Below, piece by piece: positions 1,692 to 22,069 of a stretch of 51,621 nt of DNA. Within the stretch, counting starts at the first letter, position 1, and the number at the start of each line of letters is the position of its first letter. The notes beneath the pieces were generated by a model. It saw only the letters and a list, made by a program, of their open reading frames with translations. It was not told the DNA's origin and searched no databases. The DNA lies in assembly GCA_048881705.1 (NCBI GenBank), contig JBHLSH010000017.1, positions 1-51,621 on the forward strand. The letters are read 5' to 3'. Origin of the DNA: Candidatus Heimdallarchaeota archaeon. GTDB taxonomy: Archaea; Asgardarchaeota; Heimdallarchaeia; Hodarchaeales; Hodarchaeaceae. A program made the translations under genes and the position numbers.

Positions 1692-2228
1692 TTGATGACC
1701 ATGTCCTATGAAGATTACGAACCAGATCAGACTGAAGATGGAAGGGTTCTGAAAAATGTTACGATTAGAGGAGTCGACTCGGATGTTTATGAAACCTTCT
1801 CTAATAAAATTAAAATGCTTGATATGACCATAGGCGATGCAATAACAAAAATGATGCGAGATATTGTAGTTAACCTTGATGAAACCTTCACTGACCCTGA
1901 TCTTAAATCCCCTTTGTCTTCCAGAACGCTCATCGGTTTAGAGAAAGTTGCCGTTTCACATCATAAAAAGCTAGAAATAAACGCAAAGGATTTAGTAGAT
2001 GCCAACTCCCAGATTTCCTTTGCACATATTGGTTCGTTAAAAATTGGTCCTGATGTAACAAAAAACCTATTTATGAGATACATTCGCAATATTAGTCATT
2101 GTAAAGAGGTACAACTTCCAGGAATTCTACCCAAGCTTCTCCTATTGTCTAAAATAAGTTTTTGTGGTAATATTGAAATGTATGAGGTAGGTTCAACTGA
2201 ATTACGAGATAATGACAACCTAGATTAA
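1692..2228 (+). CDS. Hypothetical protein: RHH-like N-domain plus short solenoid C-domain (paralog A)
   Basis: NVTIRGVDSDVYETF...IGDAITKMM fits a ribbon-helix-helix pattern; aligns colinearly with the next ORF. Confidence 0.7.
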   Translation: MMTMSYEDYEPDQTEDGRVLKNVTIRGVDSDVYETFSNKIKMLDMTIGDAITKMMRDIVVNLDETFTDPDLKSPLSSRTLIGLEKVAVSHHKKLEINAKDLVDANSQISFAHIGSLKIGPDVTKNLFMRYIRNISHCKEVQLPGILPKLLLLSKISFCGNIEMYEVGSTELRDNDNLD

Positions 2229-2239
2229 CTTGTATTGAG

Positions 2240-2998
2240 ATGGAAACCGTGATTTCTAATTCCAGGGTTTTGAACGCCTCTCAGATACAGTCTGCGCTTG
2301 TTTCTGACATTGAACAATATAGAAAAAAAATGATCTTGGATGAGATGGTCCAAAAGGATATGGAAGTTCTGATTGACAAGCTCCTACTTGAACGGGAAAT
2401 TCTAATGACTGATTTGGCAGATTTAAAGGAAATTCTACCCCAATTCGATCGGAATGCTACTCACGATTTCGGAAACCTGAACCTACTCCTATCTTCAATC
2501 GATGAAAAAACGTACAATGATTTTTTTAATTTATCCAATAAACTCCAGATGGCCCCTGGGAAAGTCCTTTCTTCTCTCATGAAAGATTTTATAGACTCAA
2601 GTCGTGAAGGAGAATTACAGGATTTTTCTACCAGGAACTTGGAAAATTTGATTCAACAAACGAGACCTCGACTTGCAATAAGCAACCAAGAAGAGATTTC
2701 TGTTTCCCGGCAAGATCTAATCGATTTAAAAATGAGAATCGATTTTAAGAACATTAAAACAATGAATTTTGAGTCCGATGTGGATTTAGAAACATTTAAT
2801 GCTTTTGTAGGCAGTATCAGCAATTGTAACCTTGTTAGAATTCCAAATAGTATTCCTATATTGATCATATGGAGTAAGAGCCGGAATTGCTCCTATTATC
2901 AAGTGTATGATTCTGGGTCCGAAGAAAAAAAAGCAGTGAGCTACGCCATGGAAGCGAATGAAGTGGTAGAAGAATGGAAGAAGAATTTAAAGGACTAG
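2240..2998 (+). CDS. Hypothetical protein, paralog B, with an extra N-terminal helical region
   Basis: 11 bp after the previous ORF; two ungapped blocks align with it by eye. Confidence 0.7.
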   Translation: METVISNSRVLNASQIQSALVSDIEQYRKKMILDEMVQKDMEVLIDKLLLEREILMTDLADLKEILPQFDRNATHDFGNLNLLLSSIDEKTYNDFFNLSNKLQMAPGKVLSSLMKDFIDSSREGELQDFSTRNLENLIQQTRPRLAISNQEEISVSRQDLIDLKMRIDFKNIKTMNFESDVDLETFNAFVGSISNCNLVRIPNSIPILIIWSKSRNCSYYQVYDSGSEEKKAVSYAMEANEVVEEWKKNLKD

Positions 2999-3042
2999 GG
3001 AGTGAAGTTAAACATTATAGGGAGAACCTAGAAAACTGATAA

Positions 3043-3318
3043 TTGAGAATTTTGGATCGCAATAGCGCCCTATATCAATTAGCTGTGATGTTCGTTTCCC
3101 TAATAACATTCCTGTTTGTATTGTTCGTTTTACCGAATCTTCCTCCCCACTTTATTATCCCAATTCTTACAGGTATGATAATACTGATGGGAATTAGCTT
3201 TGTGATTCGTTATCGGAGGATGAAAGGACAAATTCCTCAAAAAGAGGATTTGGATCACTCCTCTTCTACAAAACGCTATATAGAGCAGATTGATGCTCTC
3301 ATGAGTGATAAAAAGTAA
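3043..3318 (+). CDS. Small two-TM membrane protein, hypothetical
   Basis: Two hydrophobic helices followed by a basic YRRMK and a short soluble tail; same strand as the upstream pair. Confidence 0.6.
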   Translation: MRILDRNSALYQLAVMFVSLITFLFVLFVLPNLPPHFIIPILTGMIILMGISFVIRYRRMKGQIPQKEDLDHSSSTKRYIEQIDALMSDKK

Positions 3319-3341
3319 TTAATTGTTTATAAATCGAACAA

Positions 3342-6152
3342 TCACTCCGTAACCCTACATAGCTTGATTTCAAATGGGTCAAAATCAATGTTTATCGAGG
3401 TTCCTTCTGACTCATACCTTGATCTAACTTTTCCATAAATGCTGAGAACTTCTAAATGATGTAAATTTGACGCAATCGTAACCTTGGCATTTGTAGATTC
3501 GCCACTTAGGTTGTAGATCGTCACATATAAGGCCTCTTGTCGAACACGAAGTGAACTGATTCGAATATTAGGATGATCAATTTCAATTAAAGGTTGAGTT
3601 AATTTCTCTCCTCCGAGGGGTGTATTAAGCTTTTTAGACTTTGTAGGGAGGGAAAACATTTCAGCATGGTCTGCACTTTTTGAAATCGGCTCACTCTTGG
3701 AATGAAAAAATAAACTATATTCAAAATGAAACTCTGTACCAAGTTCCTGAGCTCCTGGAGTTGGAATATACGGCCCAGCATGGTTTGGACGTTCAGGAAA
3801 ATCAGAACGAGATAGCCATCCAATTGAACGGATCAATGTGAGCGCAAGTCTGGTTCCCGCCTCAAGTTCGACTTCTGGCAATCCTTTGTTTATCAACGTT
3901 AATGCAGCCTCAGAATCATCATCTTCAACCCGGATGAACCTTTTTTGTGGTTGTATACCTGAGGGTTGCTCCATAAACTGTTCTAGTTTTTCAGGATCGC
4001 TTCTACGCTTTATATATCCGAAATGAGTGCTTGTTATGGTTCTGTTTGTTTTGAAAGGCAGATCAAAGCAAACACGTAATCGATGATCCTTGGAAATGTT
4101 CCTTATGGTCGTTTTGATGTCAATACGAGGGATATCTCTATATATCCTGAGGTGTGTGATGACTGGTAGACGGACTTTGCCAGTCCTTGAATCCCGAGAG
4201 TCATTTACTTCCATATAGATTTCTAGATCAAGATTCTGTCTGAGTTCCACCATAAGAGGCCCAGATACAAGGAGTGTTCGTTTGGCATTCATTGGCCGAG
4301 CATATTCAGGTGCCAGACGACCAAAGGTATATTCATCACCGCGATCTCCCCAATCTTCAAACACATGCAGATTCTCATAAATGGCATTAGTGGCGTGATC
4401 TAGAACATCAAATGTTCCTCTTTTTTGGAATTTTAGGGTAAAAAACGAATTGCTGATCTTATCTTTTCCCGCAAAAAGTTCTACATTTTGGCTTTGTGGG
4501 AGAACCAAAGAAGGATAGATTTCTGTAAACCCCCATGCCTTAAGTGGTAGAGTTACTAAATAAGATGTCTGGCGTTCCTTGGATACCAGAATATGAAAAA
4601 AATCGTATTCTTTTGAATCCAGAAGTTTTTGGGCATGTGTCTTCAATTTTTTTGGATCTAAATCACCAATTGGCGAATTACCGACTATAATACGAATTTC
4701 ACAGACCTGTGGGTCTTCTCCTTTATAATACCTTATATCATTAACATAATAATTCAGTATCTTTCTACCGGGCAACATCTGGAGTAGGGCTCGGAAGCGC
4801 CAGACCCCCACAGACATTTCCCAAACTATATCTGATTGCTGGCGAACTTCCTGAGTTGAAAATACTTCTCCCTTATCAGTTTCAACTGCAGTCAACAGTT
4901 CTTCGCCTGTTGTAGAGACGTAAACGGGAACAGGGATATAGTCACAGTTCGAAGGATTAAAGATTAGCCAACTAGCTTGAACTTCTGTAGAATAGGATTG
5001 TTTCTCCACAGCATCCATGGCCTCTTCAACGATAGTTTTGGCAAGCGATTCAGCCCAATAAAACCTGGTCCTCATTTCTTCATGGATTTGATCCACGGAA
5101 CATCCGCAAATCGAATCGTGAGGCTGATTCCTTAGGTGCCACTTCCATGCTTCTTTGAGAAATCCCGCTGGATATTCTCTCTTAAAATAATACCACAGGT
5201 ACGCGCTTAAGGGCTCTGCATAATGAACTAAATGGTCTTCAATCCGCTGGTTCCAAATTTTAATCCAAATTCTGGTGGAATAGGTATCCTGAAGTAGATT
5301 CGCTCTTGCAGAGGAACGAAATTCTCCTGTATACTGAGGAACTTCATACCCAGAGCTAGTGATTTGGCGCTGGAGCTCTGCCATAAAATGATCCAAAGTA
5401 GCGACCTTTAACTCGTAACCTGGTATGGCCTGATCTTGGATTGCTTTCACAATATATGCTCTAGGAAATTGGTGGTCAGTTCCATGTTGGAGGAGATACA
5501 CAGGAAGCGGAGAAAATGGTTCAAGCTGATTCACGTTATCAATGATTTCTTTTTCTAGAAAATGAGCATCTTCTGATAATCCCGCCGCATTACCATAACC
5601 AAATGGTAAATAGACTGCCAAAATGGATTTTTTCGCGGATAGGTCGCTTTTCCAATAGAAGGGTACAGTGGTTATTTCAGGCGGAACCCCACGCCAAACT
5701 ATCGCAGAATCGAAATCGGTTAAATCTCCAATAATTTGAGGGATTGTTTTAGAATGCCCAAACATGTCAGGTAGATACGCAATGGACATCAAAGGAATGT
5801 CCAAAGAGGAAGCTAAATCGAAACTATACTCTAGGTTACGTATTAAACTCTCTTCTCCCGCCAACCAAATATCTGGCAACACGTACCAGGGCCCAACTTG
5901 AATTCTAGATGTTTTAATATGCGAAACTAATCGTTCCTGATTTCCAGGCCGTATATCAAAATAATCCTCAAGGATAATTGTTTGACCGTCTAGAGTAAAA
6001 CAGTATGATTCTGAATCTAGGATATCTAACAGGGTATCAATAAGATTAACCAGCTTGAATCGGAACTCTTGAAAAGGTAGGTACCATTCTCGATCCCAAT
6101 GCGTATGAGGTACAATAAATACTTGCTTCACATCTGAGGATCTATCGGACAC
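3342..6152 (-). CDS. GH38 alpha-mannosidase (MngB-like)
   Basis: HTHWDREWY zinc motif, LDGQ, VGPWYV, YLPDMFGH nucleophile, HDSICGCS, GDEY; 936 aa. Confidence 0.93.
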   Translation of the reverse strand: MSDRSSDVKQVFIVPHTHWDREWYLPFQEFRFKLVNLIDTLLDILDSESYCFTLDGQTIILEDYFDIRPGNQERLVSHIKTSRIQVGPWYVLPDIWLAGEESLIRNLEYSFDLASSLDIPLMSIAYLPDMFGHSKTIPQIIGDLTDFDSAIVWRGVPPEITTVPFYWKSDLSAKKSILAVYLPFGYGNAAGLSEDAHFLEKEIIDNVNQLEPFSPLPVYLLQHGTDHQFPRAYIVKAIQDQAIPGYELKVATLDHFMAELQRQITSSGYEVPQYTGEFRSSARANLLQDTYSTRIWIKIWNQRIEDHLVHYAEPLSAYLWYYFKREYPAGFLKEAWKWHLRNQPHDSICGCSVDQIHEEMRTRFYWAESLAKTIVEEAMDAVEKQSYSTEVQASWLIFNPSNCDYIPVPVYVSTTGEELLTAVETDKGEVFSTQEVRQQSDIVWEMSVGVWRFRALLQMLPGRKILNYYVNDIRYYKGEDPQVCEIRIIVGNSPIGDLDPKKLKTHAQKLLDSKEYDFFHILVSKERQTSYLVTLPLKAWGFTEIYPSLVLPQSQNVELFAGKDKISNSFFTLKFQKRGTFDVLDHATNAIYENLHVFEDWGDRGDEYTFGRLAPEYARPMNAKRTLLVSGPLMVELRQNLDLEIYMEVNDSRDSRTGKVRLPVITHLRIYRDIPRIDIKTTIRNISKDHRLRVCFDLPFKTNRTITSTHFGYIKRRSDPEKLEQFMEQPSGIQPQKRFIRVEDDDSEAALTLINKGLPEVELEAGTRLALTLIRSIGWLSRSDFPERPNHAGPYIPTPGAQELGTEFHFEYSLFFHSKSEPISKSADHAEMFSLPTKSKKLNTPLGGEKLTQPLIEIDHPNIRISSLRVRQEALYVTIYNLSGESTNAKVTIASNLHHLEVLSIYGKVRSRYESEGTSINIDFDPFEIKLCRVTE

Positions 6153-6436: not shown

Positions 6437-7357
6437 TCACTCATTTTTTGCCATGAATTCAATTAGAGTCCTTTTTTTTGGAAATGATACAGATTTCGCT
6501 CTATCGGCGGCTTCTTCCACAAAAGATCTGTTTAAATCACAACCGATGAATTTTCTTTGGGTTTCAAGGCAAACATCCATCATCGTTCCAGATCCTAAAA
6601 AAGGATCGAACACAGTATCGCCCGGCTCAGTCGTTGCCAATAATAACCTTTTGACAATTTTACTTGGAAATGTGGCTGTATGGCCCCTTTTAGGTTCGGG
6701 AGCAAATATCCATACTTGATCATCCATTCGTAATCGGCCCGATTTTCCAGGAACCATCATTGGCTCTGGATCAAACTTATATTTTCCCTTCTTAGTAAAG
6801 TGGAGAATGTATTCAGAACTTTGCCTAACGCGATCCTTTACATTTTCGGGCATCGGATTTGGTTTTTCCCAAATTATTAATTCACGCCAGATATACCGTT
6901 GCATTACCAGATCAACCGCAATTCTGAACGGGATACCACATAAAGACTTATTACGGATGATCTTATGTCGTGCTGTAACCGAACTGGTATTTCCTTGTTT
7001 TCTTGAATCAAGTCCATCCCGTCGAAATTCGGGAAATAAATTGTTCTCCCAATAATTATGATGCGATCTAGAGATTCCGCTGCCCATGTAACTATCTTGC
7101 ATAATGAAGAAAAGGGATCCATCCTCACGGAGTTTGTCAAGTATTGCTGAATAAATGTCTACATTACGCTGAATATATTTTTCTAGACTTTCACTCCCGA
7201 ATTCACGCTGGTCGGAAGAAAACGATCTCTTGCCCCAATAAGTGGGACTCGTGATACAACACTGAACAAGATTCTCCGGTATTAAATCCATACATTCGAA
7301 GGCATCTCCCGAATATAATTTTATGTGGTCGCTATCATAAAACAGTTCCGGGGCCAT
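6437..7357 (-). CDS. Beta-class N4-C/N6-A DNA methyltransferase, orphan
   Basis: TSPTY (motif IV variant) precedes IIWEKPNPMP, H.ATFP and DPFLGSGT (motif I), which is beta order. Probable ATG at 7357; ORF track starts at 7450. Confidence 0.9.
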   Translation of the reverse strand: MAPELFYDSDHIKLYSGDAFECMDLIPENLVQCCITSPTYWGKRSFSSDQREFGSESLEKYIQRNVDIYSAILDKLREDGSLFFIMQDSYMGSGISRSHHNYWENNLFPEFRRDGLDSRKQGNTSSVTARHKIIRNKSLCGIPFRIAVDLVMQRYIWRELIIWEKPNPMPENVKDRVRQSSEYILHFTKKGKYKFDPEPMMVPGKSGRLRMDDQVWIFAPEPKRGHTATFPSKIVKRLLLATTEPGDTVFDPFLGSGTMMDVCLETQRKFIGCDLNRSFVEEAADRAKSVSFPKKRTLIEFMAKNE

Positions 7358-7483
7358 ATTGAAACAGAAAAGCTGTTGATTGAAAAGGATTGTCCTTGGG
7401 AATGGTAGACAGTTTGGTGATGCAGACGACTGGGGCGAAAATATGCGCATATGCGGTTAGCGTAATGGATGTGACTGGAGAGA

Positions 7484-8557
7484 CTAAACGACCCTTACAA
7501 TCCAACCGTACGGATCATCAATTAAACCATATTGTATTCCTATAACCTTATCATGCAGTTGTTCTGAGACCGGGCCTACTTGCATATCGTTTACAATAAA
7601 ATCCTTACCAGAATAATGAAGACAGCCCACTGGGGCTATCGAAGCTGCGGTACCACTACCAAAAACCTCAGTAAGTCTTCCATTTAACGTGCCCTCTGTA
7701 ATAGTCTTGATAGATAGCGCTTCCTCTTGTACTGTATAACCCAAATCTCGAGCAAGTTGGATTGTACTTTCTCTGGTAACCCCAGGCAATACAGTGCCAG
7801 AAGATAAAGGAGCTGTATAGATTACATCTTCGTATACAAAAAATATGTTCATAGCTCCCACTTCTTCCACGTATTCCTTGTGAATAGCATCCAACCAAAG
7901 GACTTGGCTGTATCCTTTACGAGTTGCTTCTTCCCCAACCAAAAGACTAGCGGCATAATTTCCTCCTGTTTTTGCGGTTCCGGTACCTCCTGGAGCGGCT
8001 CTGATATAATGTTCAGAAACAAATATTTTAATAGGTGTGAATCCCTCTGGAAAATAGGCTCCGGAAGGGGAGAGTATGATGTAGAAAGTATATTCATTTG
8101 AAGGTCTTACGCCAAGTCCCCGTTCCGTTCCTATCATGGTAGGACGTATGTACAGGGATGAACCGATTTTTTTGGGGGCCCAATCTTTTTCTAGTCTGAT
8201 CAGTTCCTTTAATCCTTCGAGATAGGTATCCGGCTCGACCTCGGGCATCATCATCCTCCGAGCAGAATTATTAAAGCGTTTGACATTCTTCTCGGGTCTG
8301 AAAAGGTTAATGTGGCCATCAGGAGTTCTATAAGCTTTCTGGCCTTCGAAAATTGTCTGACCATAATGTAGACATATGGCAGAAGGATCAAGATTGATTG
8401 GACCATACTTACGAATCTCAGGGGCAGTCCATCTTTCATTTTCATATCTCATGTAAAACATCCGGTCTGTAAACACACGACCGAAACCTAACTGGTCTTC
8501 CGAATCAAATTTCACTTTCAATTCTGATTCGGGAATGGAAGAAATAGTAATAGTCAC
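7484..8557 (-). CDS. ilvE: Branched-chain amino acid aminotransferase
   Basis: LHYGQTIFEGQKAY, LFRP, LYIRP, AKTGGNYAAS (PLP lysine), EEVGAMN, LPGVTR, GTAA. Confidence 0.95.
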   Translation of the reverse strand: MTITISSIPESELKVKFDSEDQLGFGRVFTDRMFYMRYENERWTAPEIRKYGPINLDPSAICLHYGQTIFEGQKAYRTPDGHINLFRPEKNVKRFNNSARRMMMPEVEPDTYLEGLKELIRLEKDWAPKKIGSSLYIRPTMIGTERGLGVRPSNEYTFYIILSPSGAYFPEGFTPIKIFVSEHYIRAAPGGTGTAKTGGNYAASLLVGEEATRKGYSQVLWLDAIHKEYVEEVGAMNIFFVYEDVIYTAPLSSGTVLPGVTRESTIQLARDLGYTVQEEALSIKTITEGTLNGRLTEVFGSGTAASIAPVGCLHYSGKDFIVNDMQVGPVSEQLHDKVIGIQYGLIDDPYGWIVRVV

Positions 8558-8771
8558 ATTTTGTCCCTTCTAGAGTGTTGAAATGGAGAATGGGGAACCG
8601 AAAACTAGATTCGTGCCGAAAACTCGAATGATTTGATCGAATTAAGGAGCAAATCATCAGGAGTTCTTTATTGTTCCTAATATAAAAATCTTAGATTGAT
8701 AATCCAATAGAATTCTTCAATTATCTGAAGTTCTAGACGTGTTAAACAGAAATCCTAGGAGGATTCCCAGT

Positions 8772-9866
8772 TTATTCTTTATCATAAAAGGTGATTGATT
8801 TTCTTGATAGTTTTGCGTTTGTTAGGATATCAGTTTGATCAATAAAATGGTCAACAGACCCTAGTGGATACTCTAGACTGGCAAGAGGCTCCTTGATCGT
8901 TGTCTTAATTTCATTGCATACTTTTTCTGCGTTTATTACGATTTGATCCCTATTATGATACGAAACTGGTTTAATGCTTAATTTCGGAACTATTTTCAAT
9001 TCCATCATTTTTTTTATCAAGATCAAATATGCCCGGCATAGCAAATTTTCCCTTTGTCTCCAGGAGTCTTCTTTCGTTATGCTTAAAAGCACGGAATATA
9101 AATCTCGAGCTATCGAGAGTCTAGAAAACCCTGTTCCAAACCATTTAGGATAAGGTGTATATTTCTTTGATAAAATATATCCGATCCGCATTATATACCG
9201 AACTAGTCTTCCTGCTTCAAGCATGGAGCCTAATTCATCCCCACACATAGCTGATCTCCCCACAAATGCGATTTCCTGTCCAATATGTTCCCAATCTGCT
9301 AAGAGCTTAAATCGCCATACATTTTCCGGAAAATAAGCCATCCTTGCACGTACTGGCTCCAGTTTTCCTAGTGTATTGTGAAAAACCTTTCCAGACGTAA
9401 ATTCCAAGAGCCGCTGTTCTGATAGCGTAAGCCATTCGTATTGGGAAATTTTCATTTTACTAACTCCCAAAAATTCTCTCAGATACGATCGTACTGTAAA
9501 TAATTCCACTCTGTGATTAATAGGCCTGGTACTTTCTTGTACCAAAAACTGATTCATCGAATCATTAGGATCAGGTTCTGACCAGTTGGTGGAATACCCC
9601 GAAAACGTATAAGGAAGCTTTTGCCCCAAGAGGTCCTTAATTGCGGGGCCATCTTTTAAAAGATCTTCTTCTGTTAAAAAAAGAATCGCCCGGGGGCCCC
9701 AGTGATGATCAGTAGAGACTTCGTCGTCATAACCCAAAACTTCCGAGCCAGGACCAAGAAGCGCTGCATCGAACTTCAAGAGAGGAAAATTTGTTTGAAT
9801 AAGTGGAAGTACCACATGGGAAAAGAATCGTTGCGCAAGCAAAAGGCCAGGTATAAATTCACTCAT
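8772..9866 (-). CDS. DUF4037 family protein (nucleotidyltransferase-like)
   Basis: GPGSEVLGYDDEVSTDH.WGPR, T.G.VF, GDELGS and PY.KW motifs. Confidence 0.8.
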   Translation of the reverse strand: MSEFIPGLLLAQRFFSHVVLPLIQTNFPLLKFDAALLGPGSEVLGYDDEVSTDHHWGPRAILFLTEEDLLKDGPAIKDLLGQKLPYTFSGYSTNWSEPDPNDSMNQFLVQESTRPINHRVELFTVRSYLREFLGVSKMKISQYEWLTLSEQRLLEFTSGKVFHNTLGKLEPVRARMAYFPENVWRFKLLADWEHIGQEIAFVGRSAMCGDELGSMLEAGRLVRYIMRIGYILSKKYTPYPKWFGTGFSRLSIARDLYSVLLSITKEDSWRQRENLLCRAYLILIKKMMELKIVPKLSIKPVSYHNRDQIVINAEKVCNEIKTTIKEPLASLEYPLGSVDHFIDQTDILTNAKLSRKSITFYDKE

Positions 9867-9939
9867 TTCATAAGACCTCTAGCAAGATCGTTTTAAAATC
9901 TAGCCAAGAATTCGCTATATCAACTAATAGGGGCATAAA

Positions 9940-10866
9940 ATGGAGCAAAGTGCAGATTTAAATAACAGAAAAGCGCTAATGGATCAGTCATTATTTCTTA
10001 CCTCGCGGAAAACTATCGCAAGTTATCCTGGGGGGAAGAGTGATAGACGCAAACATTCTACGCTCTTTTTATCGGTTCCAGATAGAATTCGCTTTCTTAT
10101 TGAACCCTTTGCAGGCTTGGCCAACTTTTTCCTCGTTTTATGCCCACGAGTTTCAAGAGTATGGCTAAATGATAAAGATCCTGAAATTTTTTCAATATTA
10201 AAGAGTATTCAGGATCCCGATCTATTATCAAAACTGATAGAACAGATCAAATCGATCGAACCTATCGAAAGAGACGAGTATTATGAGTGGAAGTCTTTAT
10301 CTCCAAATACAGTCTTAGATCGGGCAGTAAGACGTCTTATTATTCTCAATTGCTCGCCAAACGGTGCGGGTGGAGGATATAGCAGAGAAAAAGCGCATAG
10401 GAATTGGTACCAGAGTAAACCGCTCGTTTGGGGATTTATTCATAAGATCTTTCAGGAGAAAGAAGTTCGCATTACTAATTGGGACTTTTCTAAGGTTTTA
10501 ATGGCCTTAACTGGTGACTTATACTCCCGTTCCTCCTTTTGTTATCTGGATCCTCCTTATATTGATGTTGCCAAAAGCGGAAATCTCTACGGGAAGTTGT
10601 ACAACATCGTGGACTGGGAACTGTTGAAATTCCATCTGAATCAAATCCAATGTCACTGGGTTCTTTCTAATCGAGATGATCCAAGAATACACAAGCTTTT
10701 CACTGGTTATCACATTCTTCAATATAATACATACAACGATATGAATAACACAATTGAAAGTAATCCGGAAATGCTAGTAAGCAATCGTCCATTTAAGCGC
10801 GCAACAAGTAGAAGGAAGTCTTTGAAAGCGTTTCTTGGTAATTCTGAAAACCACCAAGAGTCCTAG
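9940..10866 (+). CDS. Alpha-class (Dam/D12 family) N6-adenine DNA methyltransferase, orphan
   Basis: YPGGK, IEPFAG, NDKD, YLDPPY, W.LSN and E.LVSN in alpha order. Confidence 0.92.
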   Translation: MEQSADLNNRKALMDQSLFLTSRKTIASYPGGKSDRRKHSTLFLSVPDRIRFLIEPFAGLANFFLVLCPRVSRVWLNDKDPEIFSILKSIQDPDLLSKLIEQIKSIEPIERDEYYEWKSLSPNTVLDRAVRRLIILNCSPNGAGGGYSREKAHRNWYQSKPLVWGFIHKIFQEKEVRITNWDFSKVLMALTGDLYSRSSFCYLDPPYIDVAKSGNLYGKLYNIVDWELLKFHLNQIQCHWVLSNRDDPRIHKLFTGYHILQYNTYNDMNNTIESNPEMLVSNRPFKRATSRRKSLKAFLGNSENHQES

Positions 10867-17662: not shown

Positions 17663-19483
17663 TTGCCCCAGAAGGAAACCAAGAATAAAAGCCTGGGTCA
17701 ATATTTTACACCTCGTTATGTAGCCGAGTTCATGACAAATCTTATTTCGCGTTTATCCCCAAGGTCAATTATTGAACCAGCGGCAGGAACAGGGATTTTT
17801 CTTCAATTAATTTCTAAACGTTTTACAGAAGCTGAAATTACGGGGATAGAAATCGACTCTACCTTACCAAACAAGTCGGATTGTCCCATTATTTACCAGG
17901 ATTTTTTTGACTATCCTTTGATCCACAAGTTTTCCATTGTTATAGGGAATCCACCCTATGTAAGATGGAAACATCAGTCACGAGATAAGAGAAAAAGGCT
18001 GTTAGAAAGATCATTCTGGGGTAAACGGATGAATGGTCTTACAGACTTGCTTCAACCCTTTATCTTTAAATCTGTGGATCATTTGGAAGAAAATGGTGAA
18101 TTAATCTTTATAACACCGAAATTCTGGCAGCAAACAATTCATTCATCTCCTTTACGCGAGTATTTATTGTCTCAGGGGCAACTTGAACTGGTGGTTGATT
18201 TCAACGAAAAAACAGTATTTCCGCGTGCTTCTCTTAATCTAATCATATTCAAGTTCGTCAAAAATGCAGAGAATAAATTCATTAAACATGTTCAATTTAA
18301 GAAAAAAGGGCGTTTGACTCCAATGGAGCTTGATCGTGTGAACAGACTCCTGCTTCAACTTAATACGATTTCATTGGAAGAAACACTTGAAGATGAAGAG
18401 ATGAAAGCATGTTGGGTTGCGGCACCAGATGATCCCATCAAATGGACATTTTATCCCTTGGATATCAAGAGACTCGTCGCCCAGATAAACGAGTCATGCA
18501 CATATTCCCCTTTAGTCCAATGTAAGCAAGGGGAGAGGAGTATAAAATTCCCACTGACTCAACTGTATACCAAGGACGATATTATTCGGTTTTCTTTGAA
18601 CGAAAATGATTTAATGGATACCCAATTTAATAATAGAACTTATCTCTCCCAACGGGCAATAAAACGGCTTGATTCTTTCGTTTCAAACTCAACTAGTTCC
18701 GTTCTTGAATATTTACCTAAACGCCCTGTTAGATTGGGGGATATTGCGGAGATAGGGAATGGAATGGTATCGGGACTAGATAAGGCCTTTCTTAGGGATC
18801 GTAATACTCATTTACTACCTCAGGAGAAGAATTATATAATAAAAGTCATAAAAGCCAGATCTCTAAACCGTTTCCTGGTAGGTAGGCCAACGGATTATAT
18901 TTTTATTGAACCACATTCGTTTTCGGATGAACTGGAATTGCAGCGCCACCTTCCTAATATCTTCCAAATGCTAATTCCTTTCAAGGCTCAGCTCGAAAAT
19001 CGATGGACCCCCTATCCTCTACCGTGGTGGACATGGGCATTCCCTCGGAATAAAAATCTAATCGAAGGGAACTTAAAGAAAATCTTTGTGCCCTGCAAGG
19101 AACGAATCGACAAAAGAGGATTCATCCGTTTTGCTTACGATGACCGCGGTTACTATGCAGCTCAAGATACCACTGTAATCATAAAGCATGAATGGGTAAA
19201 GGAATCGGACGAATACATACTGGCTTACCTTAGCTCCAGCCGGATTTTTCAGTACCTGGAAAACGAGGGATTAAGACGAGGAGGCGTGCTGGAATTTTCA
19301 GAGAAACCGTTATCGGAGATTCCGATCAGGTTGATCAATTGGGAAAAACCAGCAGAGGTCAAAGTTCACGACAAAATTACGAATTTGGTCACGAAAATCC
19401 GTATGACACCCTCCTCAAGTGCCATGAATGAAGAAAACACTGAAATTGACGAACTTTTTGATCAACTCTTCGATCAAAGGTAG
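17663..19483 (+). CDS. Gamma-class N6-adenine DNA methyltransferase (TaqI/Eco57I-like)
   Basis: LGQYFTP, IIEPAAGTGIF, VIGNPPY, and a TaqI_C-like TRD ending GGVLEFSEKPLSEIPI. Confidence 0.92.
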   Translation: MPQKETKNKSLGQYFTPRYVAEFMTNLISRLSPRSIIEPAAGTGIFLQLISKRFTEAEITGIEIDSTLPNKSDCPIIYQDFFDYPLIHKFSIVIGNPPYVRWKHQSRDKRKRLLERSFWGKRMNGLTDLLQPFIFKSVDHLEENGELIFITPKFWQQTIHSSPLREYLLSQGQLELVVDFNEKTVFPRASLNLIIFKFVKNAENKFIKHVQFKKKGRLTPMELDRVNRLLLQLNTISLEETLEDEEMKACWVAAPDDPIKWTFYPLDIKRLVAQINESCTYSPLVQCKQGERSIKFPLTQLYTKDDIIRFSLNENDLMDTQFNNRTYLSQRAIKRLDSFVSNSTSSVLEYLPKRPVRLGDIAEIGNGMVSGLDKAFLRDRNTHLLPQEKNYIIKVIKARSLNRFLVGRPTDYIFIEPHSFSDELELQRHLPNIFQMLIPFKAQLENRWTPYPLPWWTWAFPRNKNLIEGNLKKIFVPCKERIDKRGFIRFAYDDRGYYAAQDTTVIIKHEWVKESDEYILAYLSSSRIFQYLENEGLRRGGVLEFSEKPLSEIPIRLINWEKPAEVKVHDKITNLVTKIRMTPSSSAMNEENTEIDELFDQLFDQR

Positions 19484-19510: not shown

Positions 19511-22069
19511 ATGGAGCTCTCTCAGAAGACGTTAAATGAATCCAATCTTTTGAGCGATTTTGGTTCAAAGAGCACATTGGCAAAAAACACTGTTCTAAGG
19601 TTCCATGAGTTCCTTATTAAAACAGATCAAGGAAGTTTGAAATCAAGGGCTGAAGAGGGTAATCAAGTCCTTTTGCGGGCATATCAACTTGATAGCGATA
19701 TCCAATCAGAACTGGCAAGACATTACACAATATCTGAAGAAAATGTGAACTTTGTATTATTCGGAATTCAAACGTATTTCAGCCTATTGGTTAAATTAAT
19801 TGCTGCTGAAGTTGTTCACCACCACATTAACGATCAGAATCAGAGTTCCTACATGAAATTGCTTATGAAAGTCTATTCGGAAGATCCTCTTAAGCTTAAA
19901 AATTATATAGAGGAAATAGAAAATGGAAAATTCTTCCAACGCGTCATTCGAGTAAAGAATCTTTGTGAAGGAAGTAACTTCTCATGGTATCTGGCAGAAT
20001 GGACTGGAGAATTGGCCGAAGTAGTTTTTTCCATAGCTTCCAGAATTGCGGAATACAATCTGAATTTGGATTACACATCAACATGGATAAAAGATTGTTT
20101 CAAACCAATTTATCTAGAACTTATACCCAAATCAGTTCGTAGTAAATTGGGAGAGTTTTATACTCCTCGTTGGCTTGTTCAGTTCCTTTTGGATAAGATA
20201 GGATATAATTTGGAGGCTTTTCAAGATTTTGTATCCAGTGAGGCTGATCCTATTAAACCCATCCAGCTTCGAGTAATCGATCCTTCATGCGGTTCTGGAA
20301 GCTTTCTCCTTGAGGTATTAGCTAGAATTAGGTTTTATGCTAAGAAACATGGTCTAGAAAATCAATTGAGGTCAGCAATATTAGAAAACATAGTAGGTGT
20401 AGATCTCAATCCACTTGCGGTACTAGCAGCAAGAACAAACTATTTGCTCTCTATATTGGACTTGATTCCCGCTGAAAATGAAATAGAGGTGCCAATTTAC
20501 TTAACAGATGCAGTATCGTTTGAAAGATCAGAGATTTTGGCATCGTTGGGAGAATTCGATTACCTAATAGGTAATCCGCCTTGGCTTTTATGGGAAAATT
20601 TGCCCGAAGAATATCGAAAGAGAATAAAACCGCTTTGGGATAAATATGGTCTTTTTACATTAAAAGGATACGATACTCAGCACGGAGGAGGTAAGAAAGA
20701 TTTTTCTGTACTATTCACTTACACTTGCTTGGATAGGTATTTGAAACAGTCAGGAATGTTGAGCTTCATTCTAACTCGATCTGTTTTCAAGACCATTGGA
20801 GCCGGAGAGGGATTCCGTAAATTTAGTTTAAAAAAAAGGGCATTTCGCGTAATTGAGGTTCACGATTTTTCAGAAATACGACCTTTTGAAGAGACGCATA
20901 GTAAGACCACATTATTGTTGCTCGAGGGTGATAAAGAAACATCATACCCTGTGGATTACGTGATCTGGAAGAGAAAGACCAAATTCAATAAAAAATCCTC
21001 TTGGTCAAACGTAAGCCGTGCAATATACCCAATACGTTTGGTGGCTATTCCTTCAATTTCAACGAATTTACTGTCACCTTGGATTACAGTTCCAATTGAA
21101 ATTCTTCAAATAATCAAGAAAATTTACGGGCGGAGCGATTACTCCTCAAAAGAGGGAATAAACAGCGGAGGATTAAATGGTGTTTTCTGGGTTGAACCCC
21201 TCAAGGTTTTAAAAACCACCGTTAGTTCAATACCGATCAGAAATGATTTGGCAAGCCTAAATATTAACCAAGAAACGTCCAGAGTTTTGGCGATCCATAA
21301 CGTAACCAAAGGAATGAAGAAGAAAGTCCCGAAAGTGTTCACCCAAGTTGAAGACTTTTTTGTGTATCCATTACTGAAATCCAGAAATGTGGAGAAATGG
21401 CGAATAAATAAGTACAATTATGCATTACAAATGCAGGATCCTATTAAACGAAAAGGATATGGTGAGGATTGGGTTAGGACTAATTTTCCCCTTACCTACG
21501 CATATCTAACGACATTTAAGGCAGAACTCCAATCCCGGAAGTCTAAGGTAGTCAGACAATTGATAGAACGGGGCCCTTTTTACTCAATGTACGCTGTTGG
21601 AGAATACACATACTCTAGGTTCAAAGTAGTTTGGAGCCAGATGGGAAAAAAACTAAAGGCTTGCGTTATATCTCGAATTCATGATATGTACCTAGGAAAT
21701 AAATTAGTTCTCCCGGAACATGTCCTAGCATTTATTCCAGTCGAAGACGAATTCGAAGCGCATTATATTTGCGCTATACTCAATTCTACGGTTGCCAATT
21801 TGCTACTAGGCGCAATTGCTCGAGGTACAAAAAGCTTTGGGACTCCTCGTTTGGTTGATAAAACTATGAGAATATTCAAATTTAATCCTTCCAGTCAATT
21901 GCAGATGAAACTAGCTCGTCTTTCATTAGAAGCTCATCGTCTGGCTCAAATAGGCTCAGAGGAATTGGTAGATATTGAAAAACAAATTGATCTAGGGATT
22001 GCAGACCTATACGGGATTGAATTAGAGGAGTATTTGGTCATCCAAAGAAGTCTGGAACTTTTAACATAA
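19511..22069 (+). CDS. Gamma-class DNA methyltransferase, Type IIG-like, with no evident nuclease domain
   Basis: QTYFSLLVKLIAAE, LGEFYTP, VIDPSCGSGSF, IGNPPW, C-terminal TRD and IADLYGI tail. Confidence 0.88.
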   Translation: MELSQKTLNESNLLSDFGSKSTLAKNTVLRFHEFLIKTDQGSLKSRAEEGNQVLLRAYQLDSDIQSELARHYTISEENVNFVLFGIQTYFSLLVKLIAAEVVHHHINDQNQSSYMKLLMKVYSEDPLKLKNYIEEIENGKFFQRVIRVKNLCEGSNFSWYLAEWTGELAEVVFSIASRIAEYNLNLDYTSTWIKDCFKPIYLELIPKSVRSKLGEFYTPRWLVQFLLDKIGYNLEAFQDFVSSEADPIKPIQLRVIDPSCGSGSFLLEVLARIRFYAKKHGLENQLRSAILENIVGVDLNPLAVLAARTNYLLSILDLIPAENEIEVPIYLTDAVSFERSEILASLGEFDYLIGNPPWLLWENLPEEYRKRIKPLWDKYGLFTLKGYDTQHGGGKKDFSVLFTYTCLDRYLKQSGMLSFILTRSVFKTIGAGEGFRKFSLKKRAFRVIEVHDFSEIRPFEETHSKTTLLLLEGDKETSYPVDYVIWKRKTKFNKKSSWSNVSRAIYPIRLVAIPSISTNLLSPWITVPIEILQIIKKIYGRSDYSSKEGINSGGLNGVFWVEPLKVLKTTVSSIPIRNDLASLNINQETSRVLAIHNVTKGMKKKVPKVFTQVEDFFVYPLLKSRNVEKWRINKYNYALQMQDPIKRKGYGEDWVRTNFPLTYAYLTTFKAELQSRKSKVVRQLIERGPFYSMYAVGEYTYSRFKVVWSQMGKKLKACVISRIHDMYLGNKLVLPEHVLAFIPVEDEFEAHYICAILNSTVANLLLGAIARGTKSFGTPRLVDKTMRIFKFNPSSQLQMKLARLSLEAHRLAQIGSEELVDIEKQIDLGIADLYGIELEEYLVIQRSLELLT

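Follow-up and report, generated by a model that had tools for sequence, protein, structure and literature searches.

Archaeal proteins known to dock on the clamp PCNA through a C-terminal PCNA-interacting peptide (PIP) box include Fen1, the large subunit of RFC, PolB, Y-family polymerase, uracil-DNA glycosylase (UDG) and NreA (PMC4929162, PMC3504372). DNA methyltransferases are not listed as PIP-box clients in the 2016 review of this group, whose sole mention of such an enzyme concerns the co-purification of a putative adenine methyltransferase with NucS in Pyrococcus abyssi. In eukaryotes, DNMT1 is recruited by PCNA so that methylation follows replication, according to the work cited in PMC11761967, and PCNA also recruits the AMT6 complex of Tetrahymena, which maintains N6-methyladenine, by way of a PIP box situated in a flexible internal loop (PMC11761967). 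The window analyzed here, that is the whole stretch of 51,621 nucleotides that constitutes contig C17 of the genome of an Asgard archaeon, Candidatus Heimdallarchaeota archaeon (3.96 Mb, 155 contigs), encodes three DNA methyltransferases of unrelated classes, each with a short PIP-like peptide in a tail or a loop. It is fairly likely, judging from comparative evidence, that the tails of the beta-class and Dam-like enzymes and the internal loop of the gamma-class enzyme are PCNA-interacting peptides of the form basic-x-x-L-x-x-[F/Y]-[F/L/M/I/V]. The enzymes and their peptides are as follows (pLDDT, predicted local distance difference test).

6437..7450, minus strand: solitary beta-class (N6/N4) DNA methyltransferase, 337 residues (PF01555, 4.8e-41, residues 62-315)
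6440..6496, minus strand: basic tail at the C-terminus of the beta methylase (residues 319-337, KSVSFPKKRTLIEFMAKNE), of low confidence in the AlphaFold2 model
6452..6475, minus strand: PIP-like motif KRTLIEFM, residues 326-333, followed by AKNE and the stop, beyond the PF01555 match
9940..10866, plus strand: solitary alpha-class (D12, Dam-like) N6-adenine DNA methyltransferase, 308 residues (PF02086, 3.6e-10; DPPY)
10786..10863, plus strand: tail at the C-terminus of the D12 methylase (residues 283-308, RPFKRATSRRKSLKAFLGNSENHQES), beyond the usual end of the family
10813..10836, plus strand: PIP-like motif RKSLKAFL, residues 292-299, located after NPEMLVSN and followed by GNSENHQES and the stop, past the PF02086 match
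17663..19483, plus strand: gamma-class N6-adenine methyltransferase with a TaqI-like target-recognition domain, 606 residues (PF07669, PF02384, PF12950; NPPY)
18647..18721, plus strand: variable surface loop of the gamma methylase, residues 329-353, containing an internal motif (AlphaFold2 and homologue alignment)
18659..18682, plus strand: PIP-like motif IKRLDSFV, residues 333-340, inside the variable surface loop

Like the archaeal PIP-box clients, the tailed methylases carry a short L-x-x-[F/Y]-hydrophobic peptide that closes a flexible and often basic tail; they differ in being DNA methyltransferases and in lacking the glutamine at position 1. DNMT1 is likewise a DNA methylase tethered to PCNA, a tethering that is here predicted from sequence, yet DNMT1 is a large enzyme acting on C5 of cytosine, which bears its PIP box at the N-terminus alongside many regulatory domains, whereas the enzymes of the window are small prokaryotic-type N6-adenine/N4-cytosine methylases. 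There is no homology in the docking region, and the likeness is one of analogy and not of ancestry. The internal-loop PIP box of AMT6 parallels the loop of the gamma methylase, and N6-adenine methylation is common to both; AMT6 is, however, an MT-A70-type subunit of a multi-protein eukaryotic complex for which binding and phenotype have been measured, while the present case relies on sequences and models. Searches of Pfam, NCBIfam and the PDB returned only prokaryotic-type methylase families and no catalytic or regulatory homology to the eukaryotic maintenance methylases DNMT1 and AMT6. Catalytic homology is instead with bacterial Type II and orphan methylases: M.MboIIA (1g60), CcrM (6pbd), DpnA (5hfj) and an N4-cytosine methylase (8s9m) in the case of the beta enzyme (E values 1e-14 to 1e-12), and the adenine methylase 7m6b in that of the D12 enzyme (6.5e-16). 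In none of these bacterial enzymes, the termini of which were not inspected in detail, was a PCNA-type motif noted.

In order to define the peptide used locally, genes ending in L-x-x-[F/W]-hydrophobic were listed genome-wide (3119 genes, called from the whole genome) and then identified by Pfam searches. The pattern x-x-x-L-x-x-[F/Y]-hydrophobic terminates eight classical PCNA clients of this genome, which carries a single PCNA gene encoding a product of 288 residues with a long acidic C-terminal tail. The one hit obtained with this PCNA in a scan of genome contigs is a Thorarchaeota MAG, at 95% identity, which places the organism among the Asgard archaea and makes the local peptide one of Thorarchaeota type. 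The clamp gene and the C-terminal ends of its predicted clients, up to the stop except for Nre, are:

L001:964-1830 (contig C24), minus strand: PCNA, single-copy clamp gene
Fen1: RQSLDQFF
RFC large subunit: EKSLTDFF
PolB, two family-B polymerases: QVNLMEFFT and RQKLDQFL (PolB-2)
PolY, Y-family polymerase: QTSLERFFN
UDG, uracil-DNA glycosylase: KKGLDRFFL
SRAP protein: KTTLSEFF
Nre: QKRLTDFF...

Glutamine is missing from position 1 of Fen1, PolB-2, SRAP, UDG and the RFC large subunit, all of which have R, K or E instead, and the strict Q-type PIP box was for this reason dropped as a yardstick. Measured against Q-x-x-[LIM]-x-x-[FYW]-[FYW], the methylase peptides match at positions 4 (L) and 7 (F), with K, R or I at position 1 and M, L or V at position 8. 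The strict consensus is therefore not matched; the local one is, preceding basic residues included. The sequence-only reading had cautioned that K, R or I occupies position 1; since RQSLDQFF of Fen1, RQKLDQFL of PolB-2, KTTLSEFF of SRAP and KKGLDRFF of UDG equally lack the glutamine, K or R at this position is no objection to the methylase tails and the caution falls away. That reading is supported in part: a PIP-like peptide in the disordered tails or loops of unrelated methylase classes (beta, alpha/D12 and gamma) is borne out, the peptide being conserved and matching that of the genome's own PCNA clients. The acidic tail of PCNA comprises about 32 residues (D/E with W/Y) and is similar in kind across the genus. 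Basic runs precede the PIP-like motifs of the RFC large subunit and of the methylases, so that an electrostatic contribution involving the acidic tail of PCNA is possible.

In all three methylases the motif lies in a disordered terminus or an exposed loop. KRTLIEFM, RKSLKAFL and IKRLDSFV occur exactly where the sequence-only reading had placed them, the first two beyond the Pfam domains, which end at residues 315 and 262, respectively. For the beta enzyme, the AlphaFold2 pLDDT is 96 up to residue 320 and 60-64 thereafter, with coil at residues 321-328 and a short helix at residues 329-336 over the motif. Among 120 homologues of this enzyme, 25 have fewer than eight residues in the tail region, which identifies the tail as an appendage. 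In the D12 family, most members, including those of nine other species of the genus, end 4-7 residues past NPELLISN, and the longer tail of the D12 methylase is therefore a lineage-specific extension. An apparent correspondence between this tail and a structured region of PDB 7m6b was rejected, given that the phmmer alignment runs into the LEHHHHHH tag of the construct at low confidence. In the gamma model (mean pLDDT 91.6) residues 331-356 form a coil, with pLDDT of 70 and then 53 by block and values below 50 at residues 343-347, and in an alignment of 114 homologues the motif falls within a variable insert (about 23 residues) that separates a beta-hairpin from the recognition domain. A proline-rich linker often follows the motif. 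Such a loop is what would be expected of an exposed internal docking peptide.

The positions of the motif are conserved while the flanks diverge in all three families, as assessed by shuffle tests and by the tails of the closest orthologues. The sole true orthologue of the beta enzyme within the class is that of the sister genome (90% identity; the PCNA of the two genomes are 96% identical), and a wider set of homologues was consequently used for conservation, metagenomic homologues of 55-81% identity being plentiful. The closest of these hold [LI]xx[FY]-hydrophobic amid changing flanks: KGTLIEYMSKSQ in the sister genome, KTKLTEYISKIP, RSKITDYLSNGT, KQTLLQYIK and KQSILQYVK. Overall, the motif is found in 18 of the 74 tails of 8-40 residues, compared with 2.2 +/- 1.3 in composition-preserving shuffles (maximum 8 in 3000). 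One Bathyarchaeota homologue has a PIP-like tail; with so few homologues named, any contrast between archaeal and bacterial tails is anecdotal. More distant homologues (P0094-P0116, one of them named Flavobacteriaceae) have no PIP-like motif and share a different conserved C-terminus, S-x-[LIAV]-x-[ILV]-[SLP]-A, as in SSLPISA, KTSELFA and SRLSLLA, which could be a motif for binding a bacterial clamp or serve some other role.

The D12 motif is kept as RKLLEAFL in the sister genome and as GKSLEEFLP in a homologue of 69% identity. Six of the seven family tails of at least 14 residues contain it, a count reached by none of 5000 shuffles. On a tree built from the core only, the six motif-bearing members need four changes in 100% of bootstrap trees, and the well-supported branches force at least two, which indicates repeated gain of the motif-bearing tail. 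As to the gamma enzyme, L-[T/D/S]-x-[F/Y]-[F/L/I] occurs in the insert of 53 of the 114 homologues (5.9 +/- 2.3 in shuffles), among them homologues named Thor-, Hod-, Heimdall-, Prometh- (Promethearchaeota) and Hermodarchaeota, and is absent from a Methanobrevibacter homologue. IKRLDSFV is thus correctly located in an insert, as the sequence-only reading held; its description there as a weaker copy does not stand, the motif being the most widely conserved of the three and present in five Asgard groups. The comparison of orthologue tails suggested by that reading also gave the pattern it anticipated, L and F/Y persisting amid divergent flanks.

Three further PF01555 methylases surfaced unexpectedly in the list of genes ending in the pattern. 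A census of the genome yielded 13 full-length PF01555 proteins, nine of them small (up to 380 residues), the small group being defined by Pfam match and length and not by the motif. Eight of the nine have [LIM]xx[FYW]-hydrophobic at most four residues from the end, compared with 140 of the 3119 genes (Fisher p 1.2e-10, post hoc), and the same motif is found in eight of all 13 full-length proteins (p 1.4e-8, also post hoc); the enrichment of methylase tails over all C-termini that the sequence-only reading would predict is accordingly present. The motif-bearing ends of the eight, each up to the stop, are RLKLTEFL, EGLTRYLDR, KRTLIEFMAKNE, KGLDPFMK, KSLTSYF, RDLQHFLNKQE, TPLDHFL and NLDSFLKNG. 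Pairwise identity among the nine small enzymes does not exceed 37%, so the tails are not copies left by a recent duplication. In five other genomes of the genus, the motif ends 15 of 27 small beta methylases. Beta-class methylases of 416-431 residues from other genomes of the genus (L083, L086 and L091) end in another conserved peptide, [NK][PS]FEIL[TK][LI]x.

Short hydrophobic patterns could arise in low-complexity tails by chance and have no function, as the sequence-only reading had itself warned, and the looser pattern [LIMV]xx[FYW]-hydrophobic is indeed present in the last 20 residues of 19% of genes. The pattern as that reading had defined it occurs within the last 20 residues of 25 of the 3119 genes, against 8.9 expected from its density in the proteome. 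Chance is nevertheless a highly improbable explanation for the methylase peptides, in view of the enrichment in eight of nine small beta methylases over a background of 4.5%, its replication in five other genomes, the repeated gain on the D12 tree and three independent shuffle tests in which the observed counts were reached in 0 of 2000-5000 shuffles.

A second explanation is that selection does maintain the peptide as a genuine short linear motif, but for a role other than PCNA docking, such as contact with another hub protein, DNA binding by the basic tail, self-association or auto-inhibition, or a stability signal. The K/R-rich tails alone could add non-specific affinity for DNA, and the predicted short helix over the motif could pack elsewhere. 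Nor does structural modeling of the complex speak strongly for the clamp. PCNA residues 1-258, i.e. without the acidic tail, were modeled with residues 268-308 of the D12 enzyme using an alignment of 19 orthologues of PCNA, and the resulting score was 0.48, with 0.00 for the best of three controls. Of 80 solved complexes, 58 reach the pass mark, as do 2 of 110 mismatched pairs; passes at or below 0.60 comprise only 7 of the 80 solved complexes and both of the passing mismatches. At least 59% of contacts are shared among the three runs, and the pLDDT of the partner is at least 46. The model thus gives weak support for binding, and the check by complex modeling called for in the sequence-only reading came out on the favorable side for the D12 tail, albeit weakly and with a low-confidence partner. 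Given that the solved structures include many PIP-PCNA complexes, the pass may reflect likeness to known structures and not binding, and the model adds little to the comparative evidence. Set against a non-PCNA role are the eight classical PCNA clients of the genome that end in the same pattern, and the shuffle tests, according to which selection acts on the L and F/Y positions and not on the basic residues. Furthermore, the peptide occurs on three unrelated folds, in tails as well as in a loop, which a common external docking site fits better than a role specific to one fold. A role away from the clamp is therefore considered unlikely.

Several points weigh against PCNA docking of the methylase peptides. 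Position 1 is K or R and not the canonical Q, and position 8 is M, L or V and not aromatic. The motif class is loose, ending 4.5% of all proteins at most four residues from the terminus, including enzymes as unrelated as the beta subunit of PFOR and a tRNA synthetase of class I (Trp/Tyr-type). Since the small methylases were singled out as a group only once the first examples were at hand, the p-values are post hoc. The D12 motif lies 9 residues from the end and not at the extreme terminus, the single PCNA model is weakly supportive with a poorly defined partner, and neither the beta nor the D12 tailed gene belongs to the conserved core of the lineage.

If docking on PCNA does take place, the peptide would be carried on a flexible basic linker and fold into a short helix, its L and F/Y-hydrophobic side chains occupying the hydrophobic pocket that PCNA has beneath its interdomain connector loop, as expected for Fen1, the RFC large subunit, PolB, PolY and UDG of the same organism. 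PCNA rings left on fresh DNA would then keep the methylase at sites that have just been replicated and are hemi- or un-methylated, and marks would be restored soon after passage of the fork. We infer from the peptides that methylation by the tailed enzymes probably takes place on new DNA immediately behind the fork, with a benefit that would lie in timing.

Whether such marking serves inheritance or defense is a separate matter. The enzymes could be part of mobile restriction-modification or viral modules, or descend from them, the PCNA tail serving to protect host or element DNA from a cognate nuclease through faster methylation and not epigenetic maintenance, in which case docking may hold and only its purpose differ. 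Consistent with this, the beta enzyme occurs in only 2 of the 83 genomes of the class and 2 of the 21 of the genus (E<=1e-20) and is 55-80% identical to homologues from other phyla, including ones named Flavobacteriaceae and Aenigmarchaeota; Type II methylase models are the best match for all three enzymes; and the methylase load is unusually heavy for a 4-Mb archaeon, with 32 PF01555 (13 full length), 24 PF02384, 3 PF02086 and 1 PF00145 matches. Several of the methylase matches in the genome are split or have in-frame stops. The D12 enzyme, whose named homologues are all from Asgard archaea, occurs in 10 of the 21 genomes of the genus, and the patchy spread of both genes argues against a conserved core epigenetic role.

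A further point in favor of this origin is the gene that follows the gamma methylase after a gap of 27 bases.

19511..22069, plus strand: Eco57I/Type IIG-like restriction-methylase homologue, 852 residues (PADLOC REase_MTase_IIG PDLC03630, 5.8e-204, residues 346-851)

The product also matches PF07669, PF02384 and PF12950; its first 200 or so residues have no Pfam match, and no nuclease domain was identified in this N-terminal part. It is probable that the gamma enzyme, which matches PADLOC MTase_II PDLC03248 (7e-122), and this product form an Eco57I-like pair, with the former as its separate methylase. The orphan status assigned to the enzymes in the sequence-only reading consequently applies to the beta and D12 methylases, neither of which has an adjacent restriction gene, although a cognate nuclease may lie at a distance, and not to the gamma methylase; as the latter adjoins a Type IIG-like gene, the PIP-like peptide is not confined to orphan enzymes.

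A mobile or restriction-modification origin is, on balance, rather doubtful, though it fares better than a role away from PCNA. The beta enzyme, the D12 enzyme and the seven other tailed beta methylases have no nuclease, integrase or viral gene as a neighbor. The beta gene is flanked by a GH38 mannosidase and a class IV aminotransferase, and the D12 gene by a DUF4037 protein and a pyridoxal phosphate (PLP) enzyme; across the small beta methylases of the genome, the neighbors are housekeeping genes, save two open reading frames with no family match, and no recognizable nuclease was seen among them. The GC content is flat over the region of the beta and D12 genes, which occur in the same arrangement in the sister genome. 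Finally, the large multi-domain PF01555 proteins of the genome (652-863 residues) have no PIP-like tail. The preference of the sequence-only reading for maintenance over restriction is unproven. Clamp coupling would be useful for maintenance and for protection from restriction alike, because both need new DNA to be methylated quickly.

The class assignments of the two solitary enzymes deserve some qualification. The beta methylase scores 141.6 bits against PF01555 (cut-off 26.7), shows FLGSGT (S-adenosylmethionine-binding FxGxG) and TSPTYW in its translation, and matches PADLOC MTase_II PDLC03387 over its full length (3e-66). Its motif IV, TSPTYW, is invariant in 94 homologues. As this is a variant S-P-T-Y and adenine as well as N4-cytosine methylases occur among the closest relatives of solved structure, the target base, N4-cytosine or N6-adenine, is undecided. 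Homologues favor Met32 (7357) as the true start and residues 1-30 have a pLDDT of 44-54 in the AlphaFold2 model; the first 31 codons of the long frame (7358-7450, minus strand) are thus probably not translated. The public gene call starts later still (284 residues). The D12 enzyme scores 40.4 bits against PF02086 (cut-off 22), which upholds its assignment to the D12 class. It falls below the cut-off of the NCBI Dam family TIGR00571 (46 bits against 114.85) and by this measure is no member of that family, so that GATC specificity is not to be assumed.

The list of C-terminal peptides also brought up proteins other than methylases. An adjoining pair on contig C7 (L018/L019, 15704-17497) encodes a radical-SAM/HhH protein ending in RITEFL and a DUF4130 protein ending in KSLDIFFS, both PIP-like, which suggests a clamp-coupled DNA repair or modification pair. 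Near-perfect PIP boxes terminate L003 (contig C8, 116 residues, RSTLDEFF), L010 (contig C39, 121 residues, QRQLDEFFD) and the DUF72 protein L009 (contig C36, QYGLSEFFG). L003 and L010 belong to no Pfam family, and all three are candidate new PCNA partners on account of these ends.

A full-text literature search found no published report of PCNA-docking methylases in archaea, and methylases go unmentioned in a 2025 paper on the Asgard replication machinery. Both PCNA clients and PCNA-coupled methylation have been described before, but the two are not known to be combined in archaea. Tentatively, with the case for and against close to balanced, clamp-coupled methylation could be a general strategy of Asgard archaea and perhaps of archaea more widely, in which docking peptides were repeatedly gained by alpha, beta and gamma methylases, solitary as well as restriction-linked, and which would predate DNMT1- and AMT-type systems. 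PCNA-tethered methylation is known from eukaryotes, through DNMT1 and Tetrahymena AMT6, and has been regarded as part of eukaryotic epigenetic inheritance. If the binding is real, the coupling of methylation to the clamp would be older and more widespread than thought, and replication-coupled restoration of marks would have existed in archaeal relatives of eukaryotes before DNMT1- and AMT-type systems. It would also explain in simple terms how archaeal genomes rich in methylases can keep their new DNA marked, or safe from their own restriction enzymes.

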